This document shows positions 3,720 through 26,300 of a DNA stretch of 32,000 bases, in pieces; position 1 is the first letter of the stretch, and each line of letters starts with the position of its first letter. Position numbers and translations under genes: made by a program. Location: the NCBI RefSeq assembly GCF_900105015.1, contig NZ_FNLK01000008.1:60001-92000 (forward strand), given 5' to 3'. The stretch is from Schaalia meyeri. Its GTDB lineage: Bacteria; Actinomycetota; Actinomycetes; Actinomycetales; Actinomycetaceae. Under the pieces are notes generated by a model. That model saw only the letters and a program-made list of their open reading frames with translations. It had not been told where the DNA came from and did no database searches.

Positions 3720-4653
3720 ATACACCAGCTCGCACACCATAGTAGCGACAGTAGCATTTGTATTCTGCTCAATGAGCACAGTTACCGCCACCTATGCCGA
3801 CGATCGCGCGCGTCATCACGATTGGGATCAAGTCGTTGAGGGCGATGGAAGTAATATCAAGGTATCCCAGCAAGAAAAGTGGGGATACCAGTCTGATTCA
3901 GCCTCATCATCTTCCTCGTCTGCTGGGAGGACTGTGACTGATGACAGGAGTCGTTTAACGGCGGACTCTGTTGCTTCGTCTGAGGCTGGGGCGTATTTTG
4001 ATTGGGCGCATTGCGCTGTTGAGCAGCTGCCTCACGGGGACGATCCTTTCACGCAGGGCAGCTGGGTATGCGCCTACCCGCCCCCCGCACCGGGCGAAGA
4101 CCCCACACCAACACGCATCCCCACCACCCGTGAGATTCTGTTGGCGGCCGCGACCTTAATCCACGCCGACGGCGCAGGCCTACGCAAGCGCCCCGAGGGA
4201 GTGTCCTACACCAACAAATACATCCCCACCCTGGTCAACGCCACACACCCCACCCAAACACACACCATCACCCTCCTAGGCCGCACCATCACCATCACCC
4301 TCAACGCCGAGGAATACACCTGGAACTGGGGAGACAACACACCCAACACCACCACGACCTCACCAGGAGCACCCTGGCAAAAAGGCATGAACCCCAATAC
4401 CGACCCCACCCTCATCCACCACCACTACACCCCACCCCAAGGATGGCGATCCTCCCTAGATGGCCCCTACCCCACAGCCAGTCGCACCATCACCCTCACC
4501 ACCACATGGAGCGGAACAGCAACCAACCCCTTCACCGGACAAACCCAAACCATCAACGGCCTGGTCACCACCACCGAAACAACCGACCCCTTCCCCCTAG
4601 ACCACCTCATCATCAACAACACCGACACCTGGGAAGAAAAACAAGGACACTAA
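3709..4653 (+). CDS. secreted Thr/Pro/His-rich protein of unknown function
   Basis: This is ORF 3670..4653. The ATG at 3709 gives MKTRYTSSHTIVATVAFVFCSMSTVTATYADD, which looks like a signal peptide. The gene overlaps the upstream stop by 11 nt, suggesting coupling. The C-terminal half is rich in T, P, H and N. Confidence 0.6.
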   Translation: MKTRYTSSHTIVATVAFVFCSMSTVTATYADDRARHHDWDQVVEGDGSNIKVSQQEKWGYQSDSASSSSSSAGRTVTDDRSRLTADSVASSEAGAYFDWAHCAVEQLPHGDDPFTQGSWVCAYPPPAPGEDPTPTRIPTTREILLAAATLIHADGAGLRKRPEGVSYTNKYIPTLVNATHPTQTHTITLLGRTITITLNAEEYTWNWGDNTPNTTTTSPGAPWQKGMNPNTDPTLIHHHYTPPQGWRSSLDGPYPTASRTITLTTTWSGTATNPFTGQTQTINGLVTTTETTDPFPLDHLIINNTDTWEEKQGH

Positions 4654-4721
4654 ACAACCAAACACCCACACAACACACAACCCAACAGACACACCCCCAC
4701 GCCCCACACAAAACCCGACAG

Positions 4722-6131
4722 CTATGCGAGCCCCGCGTCCAACGCCAACAAGTGATCAACCGTCTGCGGACGCACGAACCAACGGGCCGCACCATCCTCA
4801 ACAGCCAGCACACCAGGCTTGGTCACCATATTGTAATTGGACGCCATCGAATACCCATAAGCACCCACAGCAGGCACCACCAGGAGATCGCCGCCCGCAA
4901 TGTCGCCCGGCAGGTCGACGTCGCGGATGATGATGTCCCCGCTCTCGCAATGCTTACCGACCACGCGGCAGCGTGCCAGGGCGCCGGGCTGGGCGGGGCA
5001 GTCGCGATTCGCCAGGGTCGCCGTGTAGGCGGCGTCGTAAAGGACGGGCCGGATGTTATCCGACATGCCCCCGTCGATCGCCACGTACCGGCGCACTCCC
5101 CCGCCTTCCAGCGAAACGTCTTTGATGGCGCCCACGCGGTAGAGCATCACCATCGACGCCCCCGCGATCGAACGCCCGGGTTCGACGGACACGTGCGGGA
5201 TCGGCAGGCCGTGGTGTGCGCAGCGCTCGCGAACCGCGTCGGCCAGCACGCGCGCGACCTCCACGGGAGAGGTCGGCACCGGGTCCTGGCCCGTGTAGGA
5301 GATGCCCACGCCGCCACCCAGGTCGATCGCGGGAACCCCCAGGGCCAGCTCGTCGCGCAGCCTGGCCGCAAAGTCGATGACGATGCGGGCAGCCTGCGAA
5401 AAGGCGCGGGTGCCGAAAATCTGGGAGCCGATGTGGCTGTGCAGGCCCCGAAAATCCAGGTGCGGGGCGCGGGCGATCGCCGCCATGGCCTCGAGCGCCT
5501 GGCCGGTGGCCAGGGACAGGCCGAACTTCTGGTCCTCGTGGGCGGTGGCAACGTACTCGTTTCCACCCGCGTGGATGCCGGACTTCAGGCGCACCATGAC
5601 GGGCGCGGCGACGCCCAGCTCCGCGGCGATCCGCTCGACCTGGCGAACCTCGTCCATCGAATCGATAAAGATCCGGTGAATGCCGGACTCGAGGGCCAGT
5701 CGGATCTCCTCGTCGGACTTATTGTTGCCGTGCAACCCGATGCGCTTTGGGTCAACCCCCGCGCGCAGCGCGAGCGTCAGCTCCCCCAGCGACGCGGTAT
5801 CGACCCCCAGCCCCTCACTGGCCACCAGGCGGGCGACATCGGCGCTCAGGAACGCCTTACCCGCGTAAAAGGCGTCGCCGCCCCTCATGCCGTAGCCGTC
5901 CCAGAACTCCTCGGCCATCGCCGACGCCCACACGCGGGCGCGCCCGCGCAGCCCCTCAACGTCCAGCACGAAAGTGGGGGTGCCGAACTCACAGGCGATC
6001 CTGGTCAGGTCGACGCCGCCCACACGCAAAACGCCGTCCACGCGCCGGGCGCTCCACGGCCACAGGTCGGGGCGCTCACCGGGGTTCGGACAGGTGAGGG
6101 ACCCAACGGGCGCACGATCCGCCTTCCTCAC
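4722..6131 (-). CDS. lysA: diaminopimelate decarboxylase
   Basis: A 469-aa protein with an alanine-racemase-like PLP fold. Signatures include YAGKAF, HSHIGSQ, LGGGVGISYTG and the CESGD motif. It sits immediately downstream of argS, which is conserved actinobacterial synteny. The start codon is GTG. Confidence 0.95.
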   Translation of the reverse strand: MRKADRAPVGSLTCPNPGERPDLWPWSARRVDGVLRVGGVDLTRIACEFGTPTFVLDVEGLRGRARVWASAMAEEFWDGYGMRGGDAFYAGKAFLSADVARLVASEGLGVDTASLGELTLALRAGVDPKRIGLHGNNKSDEEIRLALESGIHRIFIDSMDEVRQVERIAAELGVAAPVMVRLKSGIHAGGNEYVATAHEDQKFGLSLATGQALEAMAAIARAPHLDFRGLHSHIGSQIFGTRAFSQAARIVIDFAARLRDELALGVPAIDLGGGVGISYTGQDPVPTSPVEVARVLADAVRERCAHHGLPIPHVSVEPGRSIAGASMVMLYRVGAIKDVSLEGGGVRRYVAIDGGMSDNIRPVLYDAAYTATLANRDCPAQPGALARCRVVGKHCESGDIIIRDVDLPGDIAGGDLLVVPAVGAYGYSMASNYNMVTKPGVLAVEDGAARWFVRPQTVDHLLALDAGLA

Positions 6132-6134
6132 TGC

Positions 6135-7814
6135 TCACATCCTTTCCGGGGCGCTCACGCCGAGCAGACCGAGGCCGGAGCGCAGCACCTGGGTCACCGC
6201 GTCGTTGAGCCACAGGCGGGCGACGTGGCCGGGCTGGATCGGATCGAGGCTGCGGGGGGTGACGCGACACTGGCCGTACCAGGCGTGGTAGGTGGCGGCC
6301 AAGGACTCCAGGTAGCGGGCGATGCGGTGCGGCTCGCGCAGCTCGGTGGCCTGAGCGACCTGAGCGGGGAACTGGGCGAGCGCGCCCAGCAGGGCCGAGT
6401 CGGCCTCGGTATCCAGCTCGGCCGGGTCAAATCCCGCGTCGCGGCTCACGCCGTGAGTGGCGGCGTTGCGCGCGACGTTACAGGTGCGCACGTGCGCGTA
6501 CTGCACGTAATACACCGGGTTGTCGTTCGAGTGCTGCGAGAGCAGGTCCAGATCGATATCGACCTGCGTGTCCATCGAGACGCGAACGAGGGCGTAGCGG
6601 GCCGCGTCCACACCGACCGCATCGACCAGGTCGTCCAGCGTGACGATCGTGCCTGCGCGCTTCGACATGCGCACGGGCTCGCCATCCTTCACCAGGTTCA
6701 CGAGCTGGCCGATGAGGATCTGCAGGTTCACGCCGGGGGTGTCGCCGAAGGCGGCGCACATGGCCATCATGCGGCCGATGTAGCCGTGGTGGTCCGCGCC
6801 CAGCAGGTAAATGGCCGCATCCGCGCCGCGCTCACGCTTATTCAGGTAGTAGGCGACATCGCCCGCGAAGTAGGCGGCCTGGCCATCCGACTTGATGAGC
6901 ACGCGGTCCTTGTCGTCCCCGTTAGCGGTCGTGCGCAGCCACACTGCGCCGCCCTCGTCAAAGATCTGGCCGCGCTCACGCAGGTGCTTGATCGCCTCGT
7001 TCACCGCACCGGATGAGTGCAGCGAATCCTCGTGGAAAAACACATCGAAGTCCGCGCGGAAAGAGTGCAGGCGCTCCTTGATCTCGGCGAACATCAGCTC
7101 GACGCCGCGAGCGCGGAACACCTCGATGGCCTCCCCTTCGGGCAGGGTGATCGGGTCGGGTTCGCCCGCGGCGCGCGCGTCGGCACGCACCTGTTCGGCG
7201 ATGTCGGCGATGTATTGGCCGCCGTAGCCGTCCTCGGGCACCTCGCGGCCCATGGCGCGGGCGTAGAGGGAATGGGAGAAACGGTCGATCTGGGAGCCGT
7301 GGTCGTTGAAGTAATACTCGCGGGTCACGGCGGCGCCGGAAGCGGCCATGAGGCGCGACAGCGAATCGCCGACCGCCGCCCAGCGGGCGCCCCCCAGGTG
7401 CACGGGGCCGGTCGGGTTGGCCGACACATACTCGAGGTTGATGGAGCGGCCCGCCAGCGTCTGGTTGCGGCCGTAGGCGGCCCCCGCCTGAACGATGGTG
7501 CGGGCCAGCTCGCCCGCGGCGCCCGCGCCCAGGCGGATGTTGATAAATCCGGGACCCGCGACCTCAACGGAGTCGATGCCGGCGGCGCCGCTCAGGTCTC
7601 CAGCGAGGATCGATGCGAATTCGCGCGGGGCCATTCCGGCCTTCTTGCCCAGTTGCATGGCGACGTTGGTCGCCCAGTCGCCGTGCTCGCGCACGCGGGG
7701 GCGCTCCACGGTCACGGGGTCGGGGACCAGGGCGGGATCGATCGAAATGCGCCCGGCGGCGGCAGCGTCCAGCAGCGTCGAGCGGATGAGGCAAGCAAGT
7801 TCTTCAGGAGTCAC
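6135..7814 (-). CDS. argS: arginine--tRNA ligase
   Basis: A 559-aa class I aaRS. It carries [14 protein letters not shown] (HIGH-like), MSKRAG (KMSKS-like) and a C-terminal DALR anticodon-binding region. The start codon is GTG (MTPEELA). Confidence 0.97.
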
Positions 7815-8027
7815 CCCCCAAGCCTACGGGGTTTTCACGCCCCGCCGCGAGCTCTCTTCGCGCGCTCGGATGAATACCTGGCCACACGAGGGGTTGGAGG
7901 ACAAGGATGGGGCGCCCTGCGCCACGCGGATGCACGGGGGACGACGCGCGGCGCGGCACTCCACGACCCACGCGGACGCACGGGGGCATAGGGGCGGGGC
8001 GGCAAAGACGCGCGGTGCTTTGCACGC

Positions 8028-10487: not shown

Positions 10488-10760
10488 CGCGGCTGCGCGT
10501 GAAACCCACACCGCCCCTGTACGCCCAAAACACCACGATTCAAGCCAATTCCGGCACGCAGGGGCGACCCCGGTTTCACCAAACCCCACGCAGCCCGAAG
10601 CAGGGGCGGCCGCGTTTGCCCGAACCCCCGCGACGCCGCGCGCCCTCACGCGGGCGCACGGTCGCCAGCTGCCGGCCTGAGCGCTACGCGCCAAGCACCC
10701 CCATCGCCATGGCCCAAATCGCCGCGCGAGGCGGAGCGTCCAGCGTCGGATCCGCTGACA
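10488..10760. repeat. dispersed repeat copy A (non-coding tail plus 3' end of cassette gene), paralogous to 18183..18470
   Basis: By-eye alignment with 18183..18470 gives roughly 65-75 percent identity. It contains the shared motif GTGAAACCCACACCGCCCCTG and its inverted partner 39 nt away. Confidence 0.75.
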
Positions 10761-11448
10761 ACCGGGAGAGAGCCTGCACGTCGAGGGGTGCATGAATGAG
10801 GGCGTGGAGATGATCGGTCACGAAGCACTCATAGTGCGCGCCGGGACGCCATTTTCCACGTCGCTTCTCCTCACGCACGCAGGTGACGACACTCCAGCGC
10901 CCCGAGGTGCAGTCACGCGCAAAGTGCGACTCGGCGGGGCCATACGTCACCAGGTCATTGAGGACGTCCTGTGCACCTCGGACATCAAGGGCACGAACCG
11001 CTGCTAGGAAGTCTGTAGGCATGTAGGGCGGGCCGTCGTGGATGGTGGGTCCGGCGTGCAGCAGGGAGGCGAAGGCCAGGATATGCGGGACTTCGCAGAA
11101 ATCAACCTGACTGAAGTGCACGCCGTCCACATCGGAACGCATGATGACGGAGCGCGGAACGGTGGGCCAGACCCTCCAGTCGCGCACGACATCCGGCATG
11201 GCGGGGGAGACAACACGGATAGCGGCCCTCGTTCGAGCATCACTCGCGGGCCCCAGGATTCGCTGTGCGTCACCAACGAGGCCATTCGCTCCTACAAGTC
11301 CACCGCTGACAAGTCCGCTGGTGAGGGCATCGCTCGAGACGCGCGTCGTCCCCTTGCTGGTAGACAGCATGTCGAGGAGAACATTCGCCTGCTCGACGGT
11401 GACGATCAGCTGATCCGCAGAACGCGAATCGGTGGCATCAACACTCAC
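10684..11448 (-). CDS. hypothetical protein, last gene of the cassette (weak EspG-like impression only)
   Basis: A 254-aa ORF whose GTG start overlaps the upstream stop (GTGA at 11445-11448). There are no TM segments. The N-terminal LIVTVEQANVLLDMLST loosely recalls EspG chaperone N-termini, but that is memory-level similarity and not verified. Confidence 0.65.
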   Translation of the reverse strand: MSVDATDSRSADQLIVTVEQANVLLDMLSTSKGTTRVSSDALTSGLVSGGLVGANGLVGDAQRILGPASDARTRAAIRVVSPAMPDVVRDWRVWPTVPRSVIMRSDVDGVHFSQVDFCEVPHILAFASLLHAGPTIHDGPPYMPTDFLAAVRALDVRGAQDVLNDLVTYGPAESHFARDCTSGRWSVVTCVREEKRRGKWRPGAHYECFVTDHLHALIHAPLDVQALSRLSADPTLDAPPRAAIWAMAMGVLGA

Positions 11449-11918
11449 GATGGCTCCTCCACAGTCTGAGCCATCTCCATGAAATCATCGATGACCATCG
11501 GGAAGACAATGCTGGGACACGTACACGTCGCGGTCCACAGGAAACGCTGCGGCGAGCGTGACCCAACGTGTGCAGTACGCGTGATCCATGCGAGTTGGCT
11601 GAGTGTCAGCGAGACATCGTCGAGGATGTAGACGCCTGTACGCCATCGGGCTCCTTGAGGAGTCATTGGCCACTCGAAATCATCGATGAGATGAAATCCA
11701 GGAAATGGTTTCTCCAGCTGCTGGACGCTGTCCGCGTAGACCGCTTCATCGCTGACATCGGTGGTCAGTTCCCCACCGGCGATCACCAGGGTCGGGACCT
11801 TTCCCTCGCCTTTCGCCTTTCCGACAGCGATAAGACGCACGCTGGCGTCACCGGCGAGCGCCCCCAGTTCTGCGCGTTCCTCTGGGGTAACGAGCCGCCA
11901 TCCCGACGCAAGACTCAC
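11445..11918 (-). CDS. hypothetical cytoplasmic protein (cassette gene 4)
   Basis: The track ORF is 11445..11960. The GTG at 11918 forms a GTGA overlap with the stop of the upstream membrane protein gene, so I prefer it as the start. I recognise no motifs. Confidence 0.6.
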   Translation of the reverse strand: MSLASGWRLVTPEERAELGALAGDASVRLIAVGKAKGEGKVPTLVIAGGELTTDVSDEAVYADSVQQLEKPFPGFHLIDDFEWPMTPQGARWRTGVYILDDVSLTLSQLAWITRTAHVGSRSPQRFLWTATCTCPSIVFPMVIDDFMEMAQTVEEPS

Positions 11919-12349
11919 CACCACGTATCCCCCCGCCTCTGAGCATGATGAAGCGCCCACGCCTCCTGATCAATGTTTCCGCTCTCATCCAACAGCCCGT
12001 GCCGCTTGGCATACTGCCAATCGGCATACACGAAATTAGGGAATCTGATCGGTAATAGCCCAATAAGAAAGAAGGCAAGAAAGATCAGAAGTGTCGCAGC
12101 AACACCTGTTAGCCAAATTGTAGGCAGCTTAAAATACTTAATAAATCCAGATATTCCAACGAGTAAGAAAATACAAGCGATTGAAGGCGCACCGATAGCA
12201 GCAAAGTTCCTACCGATTCTCCCCTTCCCATTCATCCGACGCCACAGGTTCGCGGCTCTTGAGTCTAAAAACATCTCCGCATACCATACCCCAACTCCAA
12301 GAATACCCATGCCGAACCCAGCAATAGCTAGTTTAAGATCCTCGTTCAT
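11915..12349 (-). CDS. small 3-TM membrane protein, candidate immunity protein
   Basis: The track ORF is 11915..12379. The ATG at 12349 (MNEDLKL) follows GAAGGG and lies 4 nt after the upstream stop at 12354-12356. The three hydrophobic helices are LAIAGFGMGILGVGVWY, AAIGAPSIACIFLLVGISGFI and IWLTGVAATLLIFLAFFLIGLL. The gene is conspicuously AT-rich relative to its neighbours. Confidence 0.7.
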   Translation of the reverse strand: MNEDLKLAIAGFGMGILGVGVWYAEMFLDSRAANLWRRMNGKGRIGRNFAAIGAPSIACIFLLVGISGFIKYFKLPTIWLTGVAATLLIFLAFFLIGLLPIRFPNFVYADWQYAKRHGLLDESGNIDQEAWALHHAQRRGDTWW

Positions 12350-12353
12350 ACGA

Positions 12354-13484
12354 TTACCCTTCATTGATTGGATCGACAATAGTATCGTTGGCTAGATCGC
12401 CTGCGCCTTCTCCTAGGTAGTGCCCGATCATCCCGCCGACGACGCCACCCACAAGGCCACCCACAACAGCACCAACCGGCGCAAAAGGTCCCGAACAAGC
12501 AGCACCAATGGCTGCGCCAGCTTTACCTCCCACAAATGCACCTCCCCAGGCACCACCCGCCGTTAAGGTCCCTTTCACGCTAGCACGCGCGACCTTATGT
12601 CCCTCACTCCACTCGGGGTGCTGAACCGTATCGGTTTGATACGTATCGTAGGCGGTGATACCACCATCAACAACAGCACCCGCCACGCCAGCAACCCTCC
12701 CGATTTTTCCGGCAACCGGAGCCACAACACGTGTCCCTGTTGGTTCCAGTCCGTGCGCTCCCGGCGACCGAAACTTCCACTTCGACAGATCACCCCTGGC
12801 GAAGAATCCCTCCGGAGCCTCGTATAACCCACTGAAGTGCTGCATCGTGAGCGCGACTGTCGACTGCCCGAGAAAATCTAACAGCCCCAATGCATAGGGG
12901 ACAGCGATGGCCAGTCGATGGTTCTCACTCGGAACAAAGTGTTCCTTCAGCCGGTCAAACACCGGCTTAATCCACTGCTCATACGTGCCAATTTTGAGAT
13001 CATCGAGCGTCAGCGAGAACACATACTCCGCGCGCTCGTAGTTCAGCCGTTGCTCCCGCGCCCTGACGCTGAGCTCGCCGAATAACTCGCTCAGCGCCGC
13101 GTCCTGCTCGTCCGGCAGGATCACCGTGTCCCCCTCGACGATCAGACCACCCGCGGCCGCAGCCTGAGCAATCCCCTGATACTCACCCCGCACCGACCGC
13201 ATCGACCACGCCAGGTCCGAAACGGCCAGCTTCAACGCCTTCAAATCTGCCGCCATCTCCTCGTATGTTTGCGATGTTGTCAGCAGATCCTCGTTGCACC
13301 GATGCACGAGCAAGGCCTCTTGCTGGGAGACAATAGCCGAGGCACGCGCCACGTCACCATCGGCCCGAGTCAACGCGCCGATCGATTCCTCACAGATCGT
13401 TTCAAAGGTAAACAGAGCATCGACATCGATGGGGAATTCCATCGAAAATGAGGAACCCTGAGAGACAGCACTTGCGTTTGTCAT
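12354..13484 (-). CDS. helical N-domain protein with C-terminal glycine-zipper region, candidate membrane-active toxin
   Basis: A 376-aa ORF whose ATG overlaps the stop of the upstream small gene (ATGA at 13481-13484). The N-terminal 180 aa or so look helical. The C-terminus has stacked GxxxG motifs (GGAWGGAFVGGKAGAAIGAACSG and GAVVGGLVGGVVGGMIG). Confidence 0.75.
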   Translation of the reverse strand: MTNASAVSQGSSFSMEFPIDVDALFTFETICEESIGALTRADGDVARASAIVSQQEALLVHRCNEDLLTTSQTYEEMAADLKALKLAVSDLAWSMRSVRGEYQGIAQAAAAGGLIVEGDTVILPDEQDAALSELFGELSVRAREQRLNYERAEYVFSLTLDDLKIGTYEQWIKPVFDRLKEHFVPSENHRLAIAVPYALGLLDFLGQSTVALTMQHFSGLYEAPEGFFARGDLSKWKFRSPGAHGLEPTGTRVVAPVAGKIGRVAGVAGAVVDGGITAYDTYQTDTVQHPEWSEGHKVARASVKGTLTAGGAWGGAFVGGKAGAAIGAACSGPFAPVGAVVGGLVGGVVGGMIGHYLGEGAGDLANDTIVDPINEG

Positions 13485-13783
13485 CGTGAGTCCAGACTGT
13501 CGAGGTATTCACGGACCGCCGCAATTTCTGCGGCGGCCTGATCATCGGCCTGAGCAAAGGCACTGGAGGCCGCATCGAGCCCCTGCGCTACAGCGAGCGA
13601 ACAGAAGGAGCCCATCGCAATTACCTCATTGATTTTCGCGATCCTCTCAGAAAGCCTCCCCTCGTTACTGCCGACCCCAGAAGGAGTATCCAGCACGTAC
13701 GCTGCAACATTTTCACCCGATGCCTCGAGAATGGAGGATGCTCGCGACACTTCATCGCTATCCCACACGACCTGACCCGACAC
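13481..13783 (-). CDS. small (~100 aa) helical protein, first gene of the cassette (WXG100/EspC-sized partner; no WXG motif seen)
   Basis: The track ORF 13481..13846 begins at a TTG inside the poly-G tract. I prefer the GTG at 13783, which is preceded by AAGGAG with a 6-nt spacer. The product is VSGQVVWDSDEVSRASSILEASGENVAAYV...AAEIAAVREYLDSLDSR. Confidence 0.65.
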   Translation of the reverse strand: MSGQVVWDSDEVSRASSILEASGENVAAYVLDTPSGVGSNEGRLSERIAKINEVIAMGSFCSLAVAQGLDAASSAFAQADDQAAAEIAAVREYLDSLDSR

Positions 13784-13818
13784 GCCACGCTCCTTACCGA
13801 TTGACAGGAACGAAGCTA

Positions 13819-13831
13819 CCCCCCCCCCCCC
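13819..13831. repeat. homopolymer C13 (G13 on the cassette coding strand)
   Basis: I counted 13 consecutive C at 13819-13831. The tract lies between the IS30 end (13852) and the RBS and start of the cassette (13795/13783). Confidence 0.95.
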
Positions 13832-13877
13832 GAAGGCGGCTGTCAAGGGCAGATTCTAGGGGTGGTTGCAACACATG

Positions 13878-15087
13878 TTATGCCCTGAGTAGCAGCTCAA
13901 GTCGCTGCTTGGGCGTGTCCCAGTTTAGCGTTTTGCGGGGGCGGTCGTTGAGCTGGTCGGCGATGGCGTCCAGGTCCGTTTCGGTCAGGAGTAACAGATC
14001 AGTTCCTTTGGGCATGTATTGGCGCAGGAGCCCGTTCGTGTTCTCGTTGGTGCCGCGTTGCCAGGGTGAGTGCGGGTCACAGAAGTACACGTCAAGGCCC
14101 AGCTGTCAACCGATCTTGCGATGTTGGGCCAGCTCGCTTCCCTGGTCCCAGGTCAGTGACAGGCGCAAGGAATGGGGCACGTCTGCGAGCTTGTCGATGA
14201 TGGCATCTTGAACTTCAGTAGCTGTATGTCCATTAGGCAAGTAGAGCAGCAGCGTGTACCGGGTCGAGCGTTCCACGAGTGTGCCGACCGCGGATCGCCC
14301 TTTGGCTCCGATGATCAAGTCACCTTCCCAGTGTCCAGGCAGCGCCCGGTCTTCCACACTGGCGGGCCGTTCGCTGATCATCACCATGGGGTCCTTGAAT
14401 CGTGGTCGTACCTGGCGAGAGTATGCGACCGGACGCCTACGGACGCGCCCTTGGCGCATGAGGGAAGCGATCTCTTTGCGGAGCGTGCCTTTGGCCTGGA
14501 TGAAGATGGACTGGTAGATCGTCTCCACGCACGGGTTCATGCTCTGACTTGTGCGGGAAACGCATGCGCAAGTATGCGCAAATCTGTTCTGGGCTCCATC
14601 TGAGCTGAAGCTTGTCCCAGATGATGCCCCACAAGCGAGGATCGGCGCATTTACGCACTTTAGGGCGTTTGAGACGCTTGCCTGCTCGCATGTGAGCGAT
14701 GTAGGGGTTGTAGCACGTGGCTGCAATCCCATTACGCTTCAGCTCCCGGCTCACAGTCGAGGGCGAACGTCCTAACTGTCGAGCAATGTCACGAATAGAG
14801 AGCCCCTCGACGCGCCATCCAAAGATAAGCATGCGTTCCTTGAGCGACAAGAACCGTTTACTGACCCGATGAGGTTAGCACTTCATATACAGACGGTACC
14901 AATGAGCCTGAGGAGCAATGCTTGCTCGCTCACACCGTCCACTTGAGCGAGTTCGACCATTACGCCAGACCTTGCCCGTCCGCTTCGAGACCCCGACAGC
15001 ATGAGCCGCCTGCGTGAAGTTCAAACCATCAGCAAGAGCCCGGACATACTCCCGATGCCGGCCGGATTCTAGGGGTGGTTGCAACAC
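13878..15087 (-). pseudogene. IS30-family DDE transposase, multiple frameshifts or stops
   Basis: The pieces are 14875..15087 (HTH), 14437..14850 (second HTH, RDIARQLGRSPSTVSRELKRN), 14106..14732 (HWEGDLI, TWDQGSE) and 13878..14090 ([17 protein letters not shown]). Together they make an IS30 DD(E) signature spread over different frames. Confidence 0.85.
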
Positions 15088-15113
15088 GTGTTATGCCCTC
15101 AGCAGCAGTTCGA
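15065..15113. repeat. extra copy of the IS30 right terminus (IR plus last 8 transposase codons) nested beside the left IR
   Basis: GATTCTAGGGGTGGTTGCAACACGTGTTATGCCCTCAGCAGCAGTTCGAGGCG is nearly identical to 13852-13900 and in the same orientation. Confidence 0.8.
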
Positions 15114-15137
15114 GGCGTTGCAACCGCCACCAGAACC

Positions 15138-15260
15138 TACAGGACCACGACCGCTGCGCGCGTCCGCTCCGCGAGCGCGTCGATGATCAGCCAGTGCGCC
15201 CGCTGATGGGTGAGACGCAGGCACCCCCGTGCAAGTAGACGATGACAGCCCCGGGGCCCG
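15138..15260 (-). pseudogene. fragment of an alpha/beta-hydrolase (HGG-type esterase) truncated at the IS end
   Basis: The reverse strand reads GAVIVYLHGGA and then, after a frameshift, IIDALAERTRAAVVVL, ending exactly at the IS30 left IR. The motif-level resemblance to the HGGG esterase N-terminus is from memory. Confidence 0.3.
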
Positions 15261-15440
15261 CGGCGCGCGGCCCACCTTATGCCGCCCGGGGCCGCGGAGT
15301 GCGGGCATACTGAAAAGAGAGGGTAAAGAGGGGTTCACTCGCACCCCATACACTGTTAATCTAAAGGGGAAGGATCAGACAATCGGCGGGCGAAGCGACG
15401 GAGCCCCGCCGTCGGCGAACAACTCGAGGAGGAGCACTTT

Positions 15441-15872
15441 ATGACACGTCCGAACACCGCTGATTCGCGTGACACCAACGTCAAGTACATCGCAGCGGTC
15501 GCGAAGATCCTGCACGCGAACGCCGAGGCGACCGCGGAGGGGTGGACCGAGGTGGGCCTGCTGGTCAACAAGGCCCCCGACAGCCAGAAGGTCTCCACCT
15601 ACGCCGTGCTCAAGCGCGGCTCCGAGCATTTCGATGACTGGCTGACCCCGTCGGCGTGGGACGAACTGAGCAAAGTGCTGGCCACCTGGCAGTTCGATCT
15701 CACCCAGCAGGGCCACCCCAAATGGACGGCGATGTTCCTGGGCGGCGTGCACGACGGAGGACTGGCGTGGCTGCCCGACTACTCACCCACCTTCGGCAAG
15801 TGGCGCATCCGCAGGAAGCACTCGAACCTGCCGGCGATCCAGGAGGGGCTGGAGAAGGCCGCCCGCCTTTGA
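15441..15872 (+). CDS. small cytoplasmic protein, immunity-protein-like (YezG/DUF600-like impression, unverified)
   Basis: A 143-aa ORF with a strong RBS (GAGGAGGAG, 6 nt, then ATG). It is intact amid pseudogenes. The pattern WTEVGLLVNK...STYAVLKRG...WQFDLTQQGHPKWTAMFLGGVHDGG recalls polymorphic-toxin immunity proteins. Confidence 0.7.
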   Translation: MTRPNTADSRDTNVKYIAAVAKILHANAEATAEGWTEVGLLVNKAPDSQKVSTYAVLKRGSEHFDDWLTPSAWDELSKVLATWQFDLTQQGHPKWTAMFLGGVHDGGLAWLPDYSPTFGKWRIRRKHSNLPAIQEGLEKAARL

Positions 15873-15964
15873 GGGCCCCTGCCCCAGGGCGCTAGTCGCA
15901 CTGCCCGCCGCGCCCGACCAGCAGCGCGCGACTTCCACCCTCCCGCCTACCACGGCAAGAGCGC

Positions 15965-16006
15965 TGATAAACTTATCAAACGCCCGAAGCGTTGATAAAC
16001 TTATCG
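15965..16006 (+). promoter_or_regulatory. two copies of a 14-bp palindromic box TGATAAACTTATC(A/G), candidate operator or promoter
   Basis: The boxes at 15965-15978 and 15993-16006 have centres 28 bp apart. They are AT-rich islands in GC-rich DNA, and the second ends 2 nt before the ATG at 16009. Confidence 0.5.
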
Positions 16007-16008
16007 CG

Positions 16009-17224
16009 ATGAGGACTCCACTGGACTCTCCCTTCAGCCCTGGATCCGACACCGTCCCCCACGTGTGGGCGGGGCGAGTCGAGCAACTCAGCGACTGGCG
16101 TGATGTCGTACGCCCGCGTCGGCGCGCGGGCATCCACGAGCGCGGGCGCACCATCCTCGGCGAAGCCGGGTCGGGCAAGTCCGCACTGGTGCGCAAGATC
16201 GCACGCTCAGCTGCGGCCGAAGGCGACTGGACAACACCCCAGCTCAGGACTCCGGTAGCGACCCCGTGAAACGGGTGGCGTCGGCGCTCCTGCGCCTGGC
16301 GTCCGACGCGGGCCTGCCGAGCGCCCGCGAGCGCCGCATCACCGACCTGCTCGGCCGGGTCGAATCGATTGCCGCCTCGGGATTCGGGCTCACGGTGCGG
16401 ACACGCTCAGGACCCGAGCCGTACACGGCGCTTACCGAGCTCCTCGTCGAGATATTGGCCGTGCCGCGATTCGCGCCGACGCGGTGATCGTCATCCACAT
16501 CGACGAGGTGCAGAACATCACCGACGAAGCGGTCCGCTCGCAACTGCTCATCGCCCTCGGCAACGCGCTGGCCCACGAGGAGGAGATCGTCCTGCCAGGT
16601 GGCCCACGCGCCTCGCGCGCCCTCCCGATCGCCGTGTACCTCACCGGCCTTCCTGAATTCGCCGACATGGCGGGGGCCAGGACGGGCGCGCCCTTCGCAC
16701 GGCGTTTCCGCACGACAATCCTTGAACCGATCAGCGATAACGACCTGCTGGTCGCGCTCCATCCGTTCGTGACCGAGGGGTGGCAGGTGCCCGGCGGCAA
16801 GCGCGTCTACATGGAGGCATCGGCGCAGCGGACCATTGTCGAGCTCTCGCGCGGCGAGCCATTCCTCTTCCAGTTGGCGGGTGAACGCGCCTGGTACGCG
16901 GGAACCGACGACCTCATCACCGCCGAGCAGGTCGCATCGGGGTGGCGCGGTGCCGTCCACGAGGCCGAGACCCATGTGCATCGCGTCCTGGAGCGCCTGC
17001 CCGCCCGGGAGCGGGCATTTCTCGAAGCGATGGCGCAGTTGCCGCCCCCGGAGCGGACCCTGACGAACATCGCACGCGCACTCGACTACCGTCGAGCCTC
17101 CGACGCGGGGCCGACCGCCCAGCGCCTCGATCTCATCCGGCGCGTCATCCGCAGGGGCCGCCCCCACTACACGTTCCGCAACAGGGCGGTGGGTGCCTAC
17201 TTGGAGTCCGACTGGCCGGAGTGA
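16009..17224 (+). pseudogene. AAA/ORC-like ATPase with C-terminal winged-helix region, two frameshifts
   Basis: Walker A (GEAGSGKS) lies in 16009..16269 and a middle part in 16266..16487. Walker B (VIVIHIDEVQN) and the remainder lie in 16484..17224. The three pieces are in three different frames but are collinear. Confidence 0.8.
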
Positions 17225-17229
17225 CCGCC

Positions 17230-17552
17230 GGCTGAGGCTCCTCATAGGACAGACCGGCCTGGGCGAGAACGCGGCCAACGCCATCGCCAATATCGGAGGC
17301 ATGGCATTGTCCTTCCTGGGCGGGACCTGGGTGCCCATCGAATGGCTGCCCGACGCCGTCGCCCGGGCCGCCAGGCTCACGCCCGGGTACTGGGTGAACC
17401 AGGCGCTCTCCGGGGTGTACTCCGCCACCTCGACATCCGCGCAAGCGCTCCTCCCCCTGCTGGCCGACTGCGGGATCTGCGCCCTCTTCGCATTGACGAT
17501 CCTCTCAGTCGCCATGGGCGTGCGCCGCACGCGGGCGCGCTCGGGGCTGTGA
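17230..17552 (+). pseudogene. C-terminal fragment of an ABC-2 type transporter permease
   Basis: The fragment reads ANAIANIGGMALSFLGGTWVPIEWLPDAVARAARLTPGYWVNQALSG followed by a final TM helix. There is no N-terminal part, and it abuts the ATPase pseudogene. Confidence 0.6.
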
Positions 17553-17809
17553 GGTGGGGCGGCCGCTCGTTGGAGCAGCCGCAGCGGGTGGCGGGTTGAA
17601 AGCTGCTTTTCATGGTGGTCGGGGCCGTTGTGGGTGCCCCGGGGGCGAAGTAGGCCAGTACGTCGTTGGCTCCTCGTTAATTAATGTTCGTCTACGTGTG
17701 ATGATCACGGTCAGGGGGGGTGGGACGTGGGCGCTGAATGCGGTAATCACGGCTTACATGAAGAGCTTTCCCTTGGTGTTGCCATGGCTCACGGTACGCG
17801 TCGATGACG

Positions 17810-17962
17810 GATTCTAGAGGTGGTTGCAACACGTTTTACGCCCTGAGCAGCAGATTCGAGGCGCTGCTTGGGTGTATCCCAGTTTTGCGTTTTGCGGGGG
17901 CGGTCGCCCTGCTGTTCGGCAATGGCGTCCAGGTCTGCTTCAGATAGGAGTGACAGACAAGA
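17810..17962 (-). mobile_element. solo IS30 right-end remnant (IR plus about 45 C-terminal transposase codons)
   Basis: GATTCTAGAGGTGGTTGCAACACGTTTTACGCCCTGAGCAGCAG... aligns with 13852 onward. ORF 17789..17995 reads [30 protein letters not shown], compared with [30 protein letters not shown] in the full copy. Confidence 0.85.
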
Positions 17963-18182
17963 ACCACCACACACGCCCAATGTCAGGCCGTGCAATCCTC
18001 ACAACGGGAGGGGTACCCAATCCCACAAAAATACGACCAAGACCAGCCACAACACACTCCTTCACCAAGACTCCGCAGCAGCCACCACGAGAACATAGAA
18101 AGAGCAGACCACGGCAGCCCTGCCTATCCCCACGACAGCACGCAACCAATTACGGCCCCCACACGGCCCCCGCTTTGCAGCC

Positions 18183-18470
18183 CCCGGCTCCGCGTGAAAC
18201 CCACACCGCCCCTGCTCATCCAAAAACGCCCACAACAGCCGATTCGCGCAAAGCAGGGGTGGTCCCGGTTTCATAAACCCCGATTCATCCGACAGGAGGG
18301 CAACCCTGGTTGCGCGAACCCCACGGCGCAGCGCGCCCTCACCTGGGCGCATGATCACCAGCTGCCGGTCTCCGCCGCTCTACGCGGCGAGGAGTTCCAT
18401 GAGGTTCTCCCACAGCGTCGTGCGTGGCGGCGCGTCCGATGGCCCCACCAACAACGGCGCCGGGAGGGCC
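18183..18470. repeat. dispersed repeat copy B, paralogous to 10488..10760
   Basis: It shares GTGAAACCCACACCGCCCCTG (18194-18214) and the inverted partner (18254-18274) with the same 39-nt spacing as copy A. It also carries a homologous gene tail: APPRTTLWENLMELLAA-stop, compared with APPRAAIWAMAMGVLGA-stop in copy A. Confidence 0.75.
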
Positions 18471-18665
18471 AGACACTTCAGTTCCGGCAGCAGCCCCCGC
18501 CACTGCCCCGGCATATCCACCAGCAAAAGGAACAAAACCCGTTGCCGGCCCCTTCACGCCGGCGCGCGCCAGCTTATGACCCACGCCCCAGTCGCGGCGT
18601 TTGACGCTATCGGTTTGATAGCTGTCGTAGGCAACGCCAACTCCACTCCCACCGGCAACCGCCCG
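18339..18665 (-). pseudogene. orphan C-terminal glycine-zipper fragment paralogous to the 376-aa cassette protein
   Basis: The reverse frame reads AYDSYQTDSVKRRDWGVGHKLARAGVKG...GAVVGGAIG, compared with AYDTYQTDTVQHPEWSEGHKVARASVKG...GAVVGGLVG in 12354..13484. An in-frame stop lies at 18666-18668 and there is no N-terminal domain. Confidence 0.75.
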
Positions 18666-22995: not shown

Positions 22996-23315
22996 CGGTT
23001 GCCCCCATCGACGAGGCCGGGGCTACCCGGGCGCGGGTGCACGGTAATGTGACGGGAAAGGGCGGCGTCAAAGCCAGCAGTGTCGCAGTCCATGATGGTT
23101 ACAGTCTAGCGGCCTCGGGCCTCGCCCCCCACGCGCTTTTTCACACACCGGGCCGCTTCGCTCACGACCGTCCCATTGCGGACCACAGGCCCGTGAAGCC
23201 CGTGCCACATGTCGGCCAGGTTTCGTGAACGTCGTCACGCGGCGGTAGAATCGGGGCAATCTATCGCGCGGGATACAGCCCCTGTGCGCGCGGCGTGACC
23301 CAAACGGAGGAATAC

Positions 23316-26300
23316 GTGCCCACCCACACAGCTTCCCAACCTGACCCGCGGTGGTACATCGCAAAGATGCGGGACCTCTACGACCGCGACCCCCAGCTGC
23401 TTGACCCCTCGTGGCGCGCCTATTTCTCCACCGAATCAGCACCCCCACAGCTGCGCGCCGCGCGGCCCCCGATCCCCGGCGCCGCACCCGCGACACCCCG
23501 GGCGGCCACCGCCTTAGCCCGCGACGCATCCGTCCCCGCGCACCCCACCACCCCCGGCGGCCGCGACGCGCACCTGACCGCCACGCCCCCGACGCTCGAC
23601 ATCGAAGAGGACGCCGACGCGCCCGCCTACTTTGCGCCCATCATCTCCGTGACGCGCTCCGACCTGCCGCCCGCACCGCCCGTCGCGCTCGCCGAAGCAA
23701 CCAGCCCCTACACTCGCCAGCAGCACGGGCGCGCCGCCTTCACCCGCTCGCACGACGCGCCCTCCCAGGACGAGATCCGCGTCCTCAAATCCTCCGGCCG
23801 CGCCACCGCCAAGCACATGGAAGCCTCCCTGTCCATCCCCACGGCCACGTCGCAACGGCAAATCCCCGCCAAGCTCCTCATCGAAAACCGCGCCCTCATC
23901 AACGCGCACCTGGCGCGCACAGTCGGCGGCAAGGTCTCCTTCACGCACCTCATCGGCTACGCCCTGGTCGAAGCCCTGTGCGAGATGCCCGACCTGAACG
24001 TGCGCTACACCCTCGAGGCAGGCAAGCCGGCTGCCCAGAACCTGGCGCACATCGGCCTGGGCCTGGCCATCGACGTCGCCGACGCCTCGGGCAACCACTT
24101 CCTGAAGGTGCCCGTCATCCACGACGCCGACACCCTGACCTTCTCCGAATTCGTCGACGCCTACCAGGACCTGGTTTCCCGAGCGCGCGCCGCCACCTTG
24201 ACGACAGCTGACTTCCAGGGGGCCTCCGTCACCCTGACCAACCCCGGCACCCTGGGTACCACCACCTCCGTGCCGCGCCTCATGGCCGGGCAGGGGCTCA
24301 TCGTTGGCGTCGGCGCCACCGACTACCCGGCCGAGTTCCGCGGGGTCTCCCCCAAGAGGCTCGCTTCCCTGGGTATCGGTAAGACGATGTGTTTGTCCTC
24401 CACCTACGACCACCGCATCATTCAGGGCGCCGCGTCGGGAAGGCTGCTCGGCCTCGTGGATGCGAAGCTGTCGGGCCGCGACGGGTTCTACGAGCGCGTC
24501 TTCACCTCCCTGCACGTGCCCACCCGCCCCTACTCGTGGGAGGCGGACTACGAGTACGATCAGAGCCGCGACAAGGGCAAGCCCGCGCGCATCGCGGAAA
24601 TCATCCACGCCTACCGTTCCCGCGGTCACCTCGCAGCCGACACGGACCCCCTGGCCTACCGCGTCCGTCAGCACCCCGACCTGGACATCTCCTCCTACGG
24701 CCTGAGCGTGTGGGACCTGGACCGACCCTTCCCCACGGACGGCTTCGGCGGAGTGGACCAGATGCTGCTGCGCGACATCTTGACCAGGCTGCACGACACC
24801 TACACGCGCACCGTCGGCATCGAATACATGCACATCCAGGATCCCAGCCAGCGCGCGTGGGTGCAGAAACGCATCGAAGGGCCGTACGAGGCCCCCTCGC
24901 CCGCCGCCCAGCGACACATCCTGGACACCCTCATCCGCGCCGAGGCCTTCGAGGAGTTTTTGCAAACGAAGTTCGTGGGGCAAAAGCGTTTCTCCCTGGA
25001 AGGCGGCGAATCCCTGATCCCGCTGCTGGACCACATCCTGGCGGACTCGGCGCGCACCGGCATCCACGAGGTGGCCATCGGCATGGCGCACCGCGGGCGA
25101 CTCAACGTTTTGGCGAACATCGCCGGCAAGTCGTACGCGCAAATCTTCGACGAGTTCGAGGGCAACTACGTGCCCAACTCGGTCCAGGGATCCGGGGACG
25201 TCAAGTACCACCTGGGCACGTGGGGCGTGTATTCCCTGGATGACGGCCTGGCCACCAAAGTGTACATGGGCGCCAACCCCTCGCACCTGGAGGCGGCCGA
25301 CGGCGTGCTTGAGGGAATCGTGCGCGCCAAACAGGAGCACCTGGGCGACCCCGACCTGCCCATCATCCCGATCCTCATCCACGGCGACGCCGCCTTCGTC
25401 GGTCAGGGCGTCGTCCAGGAAACCCTCAACCTCTCCCAGCTCGAGGGCTACAAGACGGGCGGCACGATCCACGTCATCGTCAACAACCAGATCGGCTTCA
25501 CCACGGGACCCGCGCAGGGGCGGTCGACCGGCTACGCGACCGACCTGGCCAAAGGCCTGCAAATACCCATCCTGCACGTGAACGCCGACGACCCCGAGGC
25601 CGTCGTCCGCTGCGCGCACCTGGCCTTCGAGTACCGCAACGCCTTCCACAAGGACGTCATCATCGACATGCTGTGCTACCGCAGGCGCGGGCACAACGAG
25701 GGCGACGACCCATCGATGACCCAGCCCGTCATGTACTCCCTCATCAACCGCATCCCCTCCACGCGCGCCGTGTACATTCGCGGCCTGGTTGGGCGGGGCC
25801 AGCTCACCGAGGACGAGGCCCGCCAATCCATCGCGCGCTACGAGGCCGAACTGGGGCGCATCCTGGAGGAGATCCGGGCGGGCGGGGCGGGCGCGGCCTC
25901 CCGGGTGAATCCGGGCAGCCGCACGCACGACCCCGCGTTGACCGCCGGCGTCGGCCAGGCCGGGGAATCCCCCAACGAACAGTGGACCATGCCGGAATCC
26001 CAGCTGCCCGGCACCGGCATGATGATCGGCTGGACCTCGGCCGCACCCGAGGAACAGCTGCAGCGCATCGGGCGGGCCCACACCCGCTTCCCGGAGGGCT
26101 TCCATCCCCACCCGAAGCTGCGTCAGCTGTGCGAACGCCGCCACGACATGTCGCTGGGGCGTCGGCCTATCGATTGGGGTTTCGCGGAGCTCCTCGCGTT
26201 CGGCACGCTCCTCATGGAGGGTACGGGCGTGCGCCTGTCCGGCGAGGACGTGGGGCGCGCAACTTTCGTCCAGCGTCACGCGATCCTGCACGACGCCACC

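Follow-up and report, generated by a model that had tools for sequence, protein, structure and literature searches.

What does a cassette of five tightly linked genes do when its proteins fall into no named family? The minus strand of the window, a stretch of 32,000 nucleotides from the oral bacterium Schaalia meyeri, carries five open reading frames (ORFs), g1 to g5, between positions 10684 and 13783. None of the five proteins reaches the threshold of a Pfam or NCBIfam family, and the sole hint is a sub-threshold match of g2 to Gly-zipper_Omp (E = 7.5e-4) in the Pfam scan. The cassette is probably an antibacterial membrane-toxin locus of the Esx/type VII secretion system (T7SS), in which the toxin g2 would be accompanied by a helper (g1), a membrane immunity protein (g3), and two cytoplasmic partners (g4 and g5). 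We hold the identification of g2 as an Esx substrate and of g3 as its cognate partner with higher confidence, and the roles of g4 and g5 with lower confidence.

Gene structure and the N-terminal domain of g2

The coordinates of the cassette and of the other features discussed below are given in Table 1. Adjacent genes overlap by 4 nt or, in one case, are 4 nt apart, as the earlier note described. Read from the sequence, the junctions are ATGA at 13484–13481 (g1/g2), a TAA ending at 12354 followed by tcgt and the ATG at 12349 (g2/g3), GTGA at 11918–11915 (g3/g4), and GTGA at 11448–11445 (g4/g5). These couplings recur in orthologous loci and are therefore not due to chance. A longer reading of g1 (121 amino acids from a TTG) is set aside because ten of ten orthologues are 99–101 amino acids long, and orthologues of g4 share the start M-x-L-A-S-G-W-R. 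The identical proteins on record from S. meyeri are annotated as "hypothetical protein", except that g5 is annotated as "XRE family transcriptional regulator".

Table 1. Positions of the features in the window; features of related loci carry the locus label (L number) before the coordinates.
Feature	Position	Strand	Description
g1	13481-13783	-	100 aa; GTG start at 13783; ribosome-binding site AAGGAG at 13795-13790
g2	12354-13484	-	376 aa; ATG start
g3	11915-12349	-	144 aa; ATG start at 12349
g4	11445-11918	-	157 aa; GTG start at 11918
g5	10684-11448	-	254 aa; GTG start
g2 N-terminal putative targeting domain (aa 17-165)	12990-13436	-	three-helix, WXG100/T7SS_signal-like; family motif AAGGLIVEGDTVILP at aa 110-125
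g2 C-terminal putative payload (aa 250-376)	12357-12737	-	conserved module ending in a double glycine-zipper hairpin
g2 polymorphic tip (last ~45 aa)	12357-12491	-	type A tail ...GDLANDTIVDPINEG; five discrete tail types
Promoter-like region	13813-13846	-	-35-like TTGACA at 13846-13841; -10-like TAGCTT at 13818-13813; consensus match
IS30 right-end repeat, three copies	13847-13908, 15060-15121, 17805-17866		62 nt
IS30 transposase	13878-14850		split into HTH (helix-turn-helix) and rve ORFs
ORF	15441-15872	+	143 aa
P-loop ATPase	16009-17224	+	frameshifted
Orphan g2 C-terminal fragment	18339-18632	-	decayed; matches aa 278-308 plus a degenerate zipper; next to GDPD
g3'::g4' fusion ORFs	L002:4240-5151, L004:14224-15147, L005:13626-14549, L007:13641-14555, L014:7835-8758
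g3-like::g4-like fusion	L018:11129-11971		280 aa; independent; distant actinobacterium

In an AlphaFold2 (AF2) model, the N-terminal part of g2 forms helices at residues 21–54, 59–111, and 129–162 and a hairpin at residues 115–122, with a pLDDT (the predicted value of the local distance difference test) of 75–90 across residues 80–150. A profile of 21 g2 homologues retrieves 828 representative proteins (clusters at 50% identity) at E ≤ 1e-3. In a Pfam scan of 99 of the 828, an N-terminal WXG100 domain is found in 14, WXG100_2 in five, and T7SS_signal in three. The N-terminus of one relative (P0175) matches both T7SS_signal (E = 1.5e-5) and WXG100 (E = 2.7e-5). The N-domain of g2 aligns with the WxG-bearing N-domains of relatives over 148 columns at an hhalign probability of 98.4% (E = 5e-15; reversed control, 2.4%). 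Many of the relatives have WxG at about residue 45 and GLxVxGD at about residue 103, of which g2 retains only the second (GGLIVEGD). No W-x-G occurs in residues 1–150 of g2, and SQQEA occupies the position aligned to the WxG of the relatives. Both hhalign and AF2 thus point to an elongated helical N-terminal domain homologous to those of WXG100-type substrates. Judged from the profile comparison, it is a homologue of WXG100/T7SS_signal domains that has lost the WxG.

A small helical hairpin with a Y/FxxxD/E export motif lies next to this domain, in g1, which overlaps the start of g2. The motif, F76-x-x-x-D80, is located in the second arm of g1, is invariant in ten of ten aligned orthologues, and is present in the separately extracted partner from L014, as well. 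Aligned with the partner proteins of remote relatives, the g1 family reaches an hhalign probability of 84.6% (E = 6.8e-6; reversed control, 2.8%), and its FxxxD falls onto their Y/FxxxD. The partner in L020 is a significant member of the Pfam family T7SS_ESX_EspC (26.8 bits; cutoff, 23.5). A search of PDB sequences with g1 gives no useful match. We predict that g1 is an EspC/WXG100-like helical hairpin with the role of a Tap/Lap-type targeting factor.

These results bear on several claims of the earlier note. It had seen neither a WXG nor an LXG motif, and g2 indeed has none, nor does g1 or g2 have a Pfam WXG100 or LXG match. It had found no EccC/EssC or other secretion core gene in the window, and none is present among the window proteins. 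Its link to T7SS, proposed with g1 as the small helical partner of a T7SS-type toxin, now has support from the homology of the g2 N-domain to WXG100/T7SS_signal domains and of g1, with its export-arm FxxxD, to EspC/WXG100-like partners. One candidate for EccC, a 1177-aa minus-strand ORF at 23514–27047, was rejected; it has no Pfam match and is probably an antisense shadow, because the plus-strand ORF at 23295–27188 encodes 2-oxoglutarate dehydrogenase.

In the mechanism that we propose, the g1 hairpin would bind the three-helix N-domain of g2, and the pair would form a rod-shaped composite signal to be recognised by an EccC machine encoded elsewhere in the genome. This putative Esx link rests on homology and on the literature. 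Schaalia odontolytica has a functional eccC-dependent Esx system, and each of its distal Esx substrates predicted with AlphaFold adjoins a gene for a WXG100-like hairpin (PMC13622651). Esx has been reported in S. meyeri W712, and S. meyeri switches on Esx upon contact with an epibiont (PMC13622651). Eat/Tap toxin loci with such a layout are widespread in Actinomycetota (PMC13444075). According to the 2026 preprint, experiments had not identified any Esx effector of the Actinomycetaceae before that study (PMC13622651).

The cassette resembles the EatA–TapA1/A2–EatI loci of Mycobacteriales (PMC13444075) and the loci of the distal S. odontolytica substrates (PMC13622651), which combine effectors with helical-bundle N-domains, one or two small Tap/WXG100-like genes upstream, diverse C-terminal payloads, and immunity genes downstream. 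The payloads differ. EatA is an arabinanase that acts on the cell wall and has a lipoprotein as its inhibitor, whereas g2 is a predicted membrane toxin; AesB has a Gly-rich disordered region with a GYNVP motif, whereas g2 has no GYNVP. A glycine-zipper payload, a tip/immunity polymorphism, and a DcrB-fold partner are described in neither PMC13444075 nor PMC13622651. The suggestion of the earlier note that the module may be uncharacterised thus holds in part: no named family applies, but Eat/Tap loci and distal Schaalia substrates were described in 2026 (PMC13444075, PMC13622651). The cassette belongs to these recently recognised actinobacterial Esx toxin loci and may be one of the distal clusters predicted in the same genus (PMC13622651); the accessory pair is new, and the widespread payload module has no dedicated Pfam family.

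The glycine-zipper module of g2, its variable tip and g3

The share of glycine in g2 is 7% in residues 1–250 and 23% in residues 251–376. An extended glycine zipper lies near the C-terminus and is made of two runs, G311-G315-G319-G323-G327 and G338-G342-G346-G350-G354-G358-G362, with AACSGPFAPV between them. The composition of g2 from a helical N-domain and two C-terminal glycine zippers, as read in the earlier note, is therefore seen in both the AF2 helices and the zipper positions. The zipper module is the most conserved region in the alignment of the 21 g2 homologues. Most of the relatives are 300–450 amino acids long, and most of those listed match g2 at about residues 250–370 alone, at their own C-terminus. 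The payload module is accordingly a large family, with 828 representative clusters at 50% identity and no dedicated Pfam model.

From its sequence, we predict that the C-terminal hairpin is the membrane-inserting, depolarising part of g2. PDB sequence searches with g2, as a single sequence and as a profile, give only PTS IIA (E = 0.4) and designed coiled coils. The mean pLDDT of the full-length AF2 model is 54.5, and Foldseek gives only generic BAR-like helices (E > 0.26). PHROG tape-measure and tail-associated lysin families match residues 175–372 (12354–12960), mainly the Gly-rich C-terminal region, with a best E of 2.4e-7. This likeness to tape-measure proteins is probably compositional. 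Comparable segments of tape-measure proteins are also thought to enter membranes.

Close relatives share a conserved N-terminal part and differ at the C-terminus of g2 only in the last ~45 residues. These tips fall into five tail types (A–E), which are shuffled with respect to the N-domain phylogeny. In L004, L005, and L007, the N-domains are 94–98% identical and the tips, of types A, E, and B, are 64–69% identical. In L002 and L007, the N-domains are 74% identical, the tips 91–94%, and the g3 proteins 92%. The payload is not variable as a whole, because conservation in g2 peaks in the zipper domain. The polymorphic-toxin layout seen in the earlier note consequently stands as far as a putative immunity gene of foreign composition directly downstream is concerned, but the variable part is confined to the tip.

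The protein encoded next, g3, has hydrophobic segments at about residues 7–24, 49–70, and 77–99, and the positive-inside pattern predicts an N-out/C-in topology with a cytoplasmic C-tail. We compared tips and g3 proteins in 14 tip/g3 pairs sorted by tip type, orphan tips included. The identity of g3 is 74% within tip types versus 56% between them (permutation p = 1.5e-4), and the nearest g3 neighbour is of the same tip type in 11 of the 14. A first test of raw tail identity against g3 identity, which included the frameshifted g2 of L008, was not significant (rho 0.07); the test that replaced it and included the orphan tips gives rho 0.45 (p 0.002). The copy number of g3 differs between loci, and every extra copy is preceded by an orphan g2 tip (L001, L004, L005, L006, and L014). 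The linkage of g2 and g3 is kept in the remote relatives L011 (E = 1e-18), L013, and L020 (E = 5e-11). In sequence terms, a downstream gene co-varies with the tip, each of the five tip types having a g3 type of its own, and orphan tip/g3 cassettes are common. We predict that g3 is the cognate membrane immunity protein of g2.

The GC content at third codon positions (GC3) is 0.58 in g1, 0.70 in the N-terminal part of g2, 0.465 in its C-terminal part, 0.49 in g3, 0.65 in g4, and 0.71 in g5. In the housekeeping genes of the window it is 0.83–0.88, and the GC content of the window is 0.645. The entire cassette (GC3 0.47–0.71) is thus under the genomic norm and lowest in the C-terminal part of g2 and in g3. 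The earlier note had singled out g3 as strikingly AT-rich. Its low GC (0.483, the lowest in the cassette) is confirmed, but the trough comprises the toxin tip and g3, not g3 alone, because the C-terminal third of g2 is equally atypical.

Once exported, the zipper hairpin of g2 would insert into the cytoplasmic membrane of adjacent cells, which it would depolarise or make permeable, and g3 would serve as cognate immunity with a specificity for the toxin's final ~45 residues. Such specificity would account for the joint diversification and recombination of tips and g3 genes and for their accumulation as orphan cassettes. There are precedents: membranes are depolarised by the glycine-zipper T7SS toxins TelE and EsxX, against which polytopic membrane proteins act (PMC10434224, PMC12744356). 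With EsxX, the cytoplasmic zipper is sequestered by the soluble pair ExiAB, and the membrane proteins ExiCD protect from outside (PMC12744356).

The cassette shares with EsxX–LapX3/LapX4–ExiAB–ExiCD of Staphylococcus aureus ST398 (PMC12744356) and TelE/TipE of Streptococcus gallolyticus (PMC10434224) a helical N-domain, small FxxxD partners, an extended glycine zipper at the C-terminus, a polytopic membrane protein for immunity (putative here) that also occurs as orphans, and a soluble pair just downstream. It differs from them in its actinobacterial T7SSa host, in the absence of an LXG domain (PF04740), and in having no detectable sequence similarity. Moreover, EsxX has two six-TM (transmembrane) immunity proteins, in contrast to one small three-TM protein here, and its soluble pair is DUF5085 (GyrI-like SHS2 fold), in contrast to a DcrB/DUF1795 fold for g4 and a g4/g5 pair that are not paralogues. 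None of the five proteins matches LXG (PF04740), the Lap families DUF3130, DUF3958, DUF5344, and DUF5082, or DUF5085 at E ≤ 1. The cassette is therefore no member of the LXG/TelE/EsxX family, whose LXG, Lap, and DUF5085 features it lacks; by analogy, it probably works like one. Glycine-zipper or ionophoric toxins opposed by small polytopic membrane proteins, often multicopy, are likewise seen in TspA/TsaI of S. aureus and in the type VI secretion or CDI membrane toxins Tse4, Tse5-CT, and Ssp6, which use other delivery domains and machines and have no detected homology to the cassette. The payload module ties actinobacterial T7SSa to glycine-zipper toxins so far studied only in Firmicutes.

It is unlikely, in our estimate, that g1 and g2 are an Esx pair in which g2 is no interbacterial toxin, being instead a pore in the producer's own membrane or for export (like EsxE/EsxF) or an effector against Saccharibacteria (like AesA/AesB), with g3–g5 in assembly or regulation. 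The Esx system of S. odontolytica limits epibiont growth, and the epibiont induces predicted distal substrate clusters (PMC13622651). The high conservation of the zipper domain as a whole and the persistence of g4 and g5 without the toxin in a second module (see below) agree with such a role, too. However, tip types co-vary with g3 types, orphan tip-plus-g3 arrays are common, and near-identical N-domains carry swapped tips. Such polymorphism is a hallmark of kin-directed toxin/immunity diversification and is unexpected for a housekeeping pore, and a polymorphic self-immunity gene would not be needed against an epibiont.

If the toxin reading is true, the locus equips the genus with a membrane toxin that discriminates between strains and has a readable code of tip and immunity protein, with five types in about ten loci. 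Schaalia and Actinomyces are abundant in the human oral microbiota and are hosts of Saccharibacteria.

The trailing genes g4 and g5

The AF2 model of g4 has a pLDDT of 85.3 and a predicted template modelling score (pTM) of 0.82. Compared with the PDB by Foldseek, it matches 3lyd (E = 1.3e-6), LpqN (E = 4.8e-6), and the complex of EagT6 with the Tse6 transmembrane domain (TMD; 6xrf; E = 5e-5; TM-scores 0.66/0.73), and further 1tu1, the SciW–Rhs1 TMD complex 6xrr, 6e8a, DcrB, MTC28, and PsbP. The matches have a probability of 1.00 and TM-scores of 0.5–0.73 overall. According to the model, g4 has the DcrB/DUF1795/LpqN/PsbP fold, which is that of Eag chaperones. The earlier note took g4 for a soluble protein of no named family. 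It has no Pfam or NCBIfam match, but the fold can now be named.

Sequence searches reach less far. Against PF08786 (DcrB/DUF1795), g4 has no match at E ≤ 1, and its remote homologues L010_162 (E = 0.05) and L018_162 (E = 0.018) are both under the cutoff. A PDB sequence search with g4 gives nothing meaningful. The g4 family has 132 matches, confined to Schaalia and Actinomyces. It aligns with the DcrB-like genes of remote cassettes at an hhalign probability of 95% (E = 4e-8; reversed control, 0.4%). No signal peptide is present in g4.

In six loci (L002, L004, L005, L007, L014, and L015), a g3'-like TM part and a g4'-like domain are fused in one ORF of 303–307 amino acids, as part of a second module, and an independent fusion of the same kind is found in a distant actinobacterium (L018). 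Because the g4-like domain is fused to the cytoplasmic C-end of g3-like proteins, it should be on the cytoplasmic side. Gene callers often split or shorten the Schaalia g3'::g4' fusion to products of 156–277 amino acids.

The start of g5 overlaps the end of g4 or g4' by 4 nt in every module, the toxin-less g3'::g4'–g5' included. BLAST connects g5 to L020_267 (E = 1e-8) and, in an onward chain, to the ~170–270-aa genes of remote cassettes; a profile–profile comparison of g5 with the remote ~250-aa genes gives a probability of 0.7% and leaves the chain unconfirmed. The earlier note read g5 as EspG-like, which we do not find. Neither g5 nor its homologues match the EspG family (PF14011) in Pfam, no PE/PPE genes are nearby, and a profile of 17 g5 sequences has no PDB sequence match at E ≤ 10. 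EspG entries should be in the PDB, because a solved EspG5 structure is cited in PMC13444075.

Three other readings of g5 were dropped. The label of XRE regulator given to g5 (WP_074632908.1) and to several homologues is probably a misannotation, as judged from the Pfam and NCBIfam searches (no HTH or other family at E ≤ 1). A metal site (H205/C208/H213/H215/H219) is no family feature, the cluster being absent from the L020 homologue. A paralogy of g4 and g5 like that of ExiA and ExiB is ruled out by an hhalign probability below 1%. On linkage, g5 is predicted to be a soluble partner of g4.

What might the pair do? By analogy, we predict that g4 shields the glycine-zipper helices of g2, either as a chaperone or by neutralising them in the cytoplasm. 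In the cytoplasm of the producer, g4 together with its obligate neighbour g5 would keep the hydrophobic zipper soluble and harmless, a proposed job that would parallel that of ExiAB for EsxX and of Eag chaperones for T6SS (type VI secretion system) effectors. Eag chaperones shield the TM helices of effectors (PMC7773334). Like EagT6, EagR1, and SciW (DUF1795; PMC7773334, PMC12881460), g4 is a small, cytoplasmic protein of this fold (Foldseek E = 5e-5 to 2e-3; TM-scores 0.6–0.73) encoded beside an effector with hydrophobic glycine-rich helices. Eag chaperones act on the N-terminal TMDs of prePAAR T6SS effectors in Gram-negative bacteria, whereas g4 would act on C-terminal helices of a T7SS effector in a Gram-positive host. 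Unlike Eag proteins, g4 comes as a pair with g5, can occur fused to the putative immunity protein, and is under the Pfam threshold for DcrB/DUF1795. Because of the Gram-positive host and the absence of a T6SS/prePAAR context, we describe g4 as Eag-like in fold and do not file it as a member of the Eag family. We found no literature report that links DUF1795-fold proteins to T7SS.

A TY-Chap3 gene (a T3SS, or type III secretion system, /YbjN-type peptide-binding chaperone; E = 1e-10) follows the g5-like gene of a remote cassette (L016:12739–13170) and is a further sign that such loci invest in chaperoning.

We consider it distinctly improbable that g4 and g5 are passengers with no tie to g2 and g3, for instance as orphan immunity proteins directed at other toxins or as a small regulator. 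Unrelated immunity genes often gather in polymorphic-toxin loci, g5 bears an XRE label, and both genes occur in a toxin-less module. However, in two independent lineages a g4-like domain and a g3-like membrane domain form one protein, a g4 homologue occupies the same position in the remote cassettes (hhalign 95%), g4 and g5 are coupled to g3 and downstream of g2 in every locus whose contig reaches that far, and g5 shows no detectable HTH.

Judging from the two natural fusions of independent origin, the Eag-like protein would work while joined to the putative immunity protein on the inner side of the membrane. We advance a wider proposition tentatively, leaning slightly towards doubt: that glycine-zipper T7SS toxins of actinobacteria generally come with a conserved three-TM protein, an Eag-fold protein, and a partner of ~250 amino acids, and that Eag-type chaperoning, of which T6SS offers the only cases described to date, has been recruited to T7SS with the Eag-like protein attached to the membrane via the immunity protein. 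If so, one complex would serve both the cytoplasmic and the membrane compartment, and the same chaperone fold may serve both T6SS and T7SS. Together with g5, the Eag-fold protein and the way it is fused to the putative immunity protein would offer a testable answer to how a toxin active from both sides of the membrane is tamed before export.

Several observations weigh against the cassette being an Esx-dependent membrane-toxin locus with chaperoned export. Neither a WxG nor an LXG motif is present in g2, and both g2 and g1 are under every Pfam threshold. No T7SS core genes are present in the 32-kb window or within 10 kb of the related loci examined. A pore structure is unsupported, because the AF2 model of the C-terminal part of g2 is of low confidence. 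Secreted lipoproteins of unrelated function also use the DcrB/LpqN fold. Searches of Pfam, NCBIfam, PADLOC, PHROG, and PDB sequences yield no match to g5, and no relatives of known function are detectable. Since g4 and g5 persist in the toxin-less g3'::g4'–g5' module, a role in immunity fits them better than that of a pure export chaperone. Finally, the secretome of S. odontolytica held only substrates encoded in the Esx cluster and no distal candidates (PMC13622651).

A membrane-active system independent of T7SS, be it bacteriocin-like or holin-like, phage-derived, or a defence module, is very improbable: no secretion gene is adjacent, an IS30 remnant lies at the flank, and PHROG tape-measure/tail-lysin families match the zipper region, but those matches mainly concern the Gly-rich hydrophobic C-terminal region, no PADLOC family and no true phage family (PADLOC, PHROG) is matched, no signal peptide or leader is present, the N-domain and g1 show homology to domains of T7SS substrates and the controls are clean, and the chromosomal site between housekeeping genes is fixed in all relatives.

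Related loci and surroundings of the cassette

The cassette lies between CitMHS and GDPD, and the site is the same in nine Schaalia/Actinomyces/Pauljensenia genomes and in a more distant species (L014/L015). It reads away from GDPD in the window and in L014/L015 and away from CitMHS in L001–L009. The locus has therefore been inverted at least once, as the orientation with respect to the fixed flanks differs between genomes.

The five-part layout recurs in distant Actinobacteria. The remote cassettes encode, in order, a small partner, a zipper protein of ~370–400 amino acids, a small polytopic membrane protein, a g4 homologue of ~150–190 amino acids (with weak Pfam DcrB/LpqN matches), and a protein of ~170–270 amino acids. 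In two related loci, tblastn recovers a gene as two pieces that lie in different frames, namely g2 in S. odontolytica UMB0018 (L008:9995–11114) and g4 in A. bouchesdurhonensis (L006:12174–12636). Judged from these reading frames, each is a pseudogene or the product of an assembly error. Records labelled Xylanimonas cellulosilytica 352_XCEL (L004, NZ_JVKM01000025.1) and Kytococcus sedentarius hold Schaalia-type versions of the locus (WP_048724792.1/WP_048724774.1), and in the Xylanimonas record the flanking genes are Schaalia-type, as well. These records are probably mislabelled or contaminated assemblies.

Many related genomes carry the second, toxin-less module, g3'::g4'–g5'. In the window, its place is taken by IS30 remnants and decayed fragments, and none of the material of 13847–17995 is found in the related loci. 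The orphan fragment next to GDPD is 61% identical to g2 (tblastn, E = 3e-7). An overlapping fragment (18383–18436) resembles the last 18 amino acids of g5', a weak match (E = 1.4) that rests on context. The orphan fragment looks like a deletion relic of a second toxin module.

Upstream of g1 lies a promoter-like region, which we regard as a putative promoter on the basis of its boxes. The -35-like and -10-like boxes are separated by a spacer of 22 nt, which contains a run of 13 G (13819–13831, on the coding strand of the cassette), the single occurrence of such a run in the window. TTGAC is invariant in six aligned upstream regions, and the spacers of the relatives are 16–18 nt long with only G3–G6. 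The run could be a slipped-strand switch for phase variation of the toxin operon, or a homopolymer sequencing error. Promoter and terminator scans give no excess of sites over shuffled controls. An IS30 right end adjoins the region at 13847.

Long plus-strand ORFs at 4443–7991 overlap the minus-strand genes for LysA and ArgS, have no Pfam match, and are probably shadows. Besides LysA, ArgS, the CitMHS transporter, and GDPD, the other genes of the window are housekeeping genes, too, and encode an M23 peptidase, two CNNM/CBS proteins, 2-oxoglutarate dehydrogenase, and an extracytoplasmic function (ECF) sigma factor.

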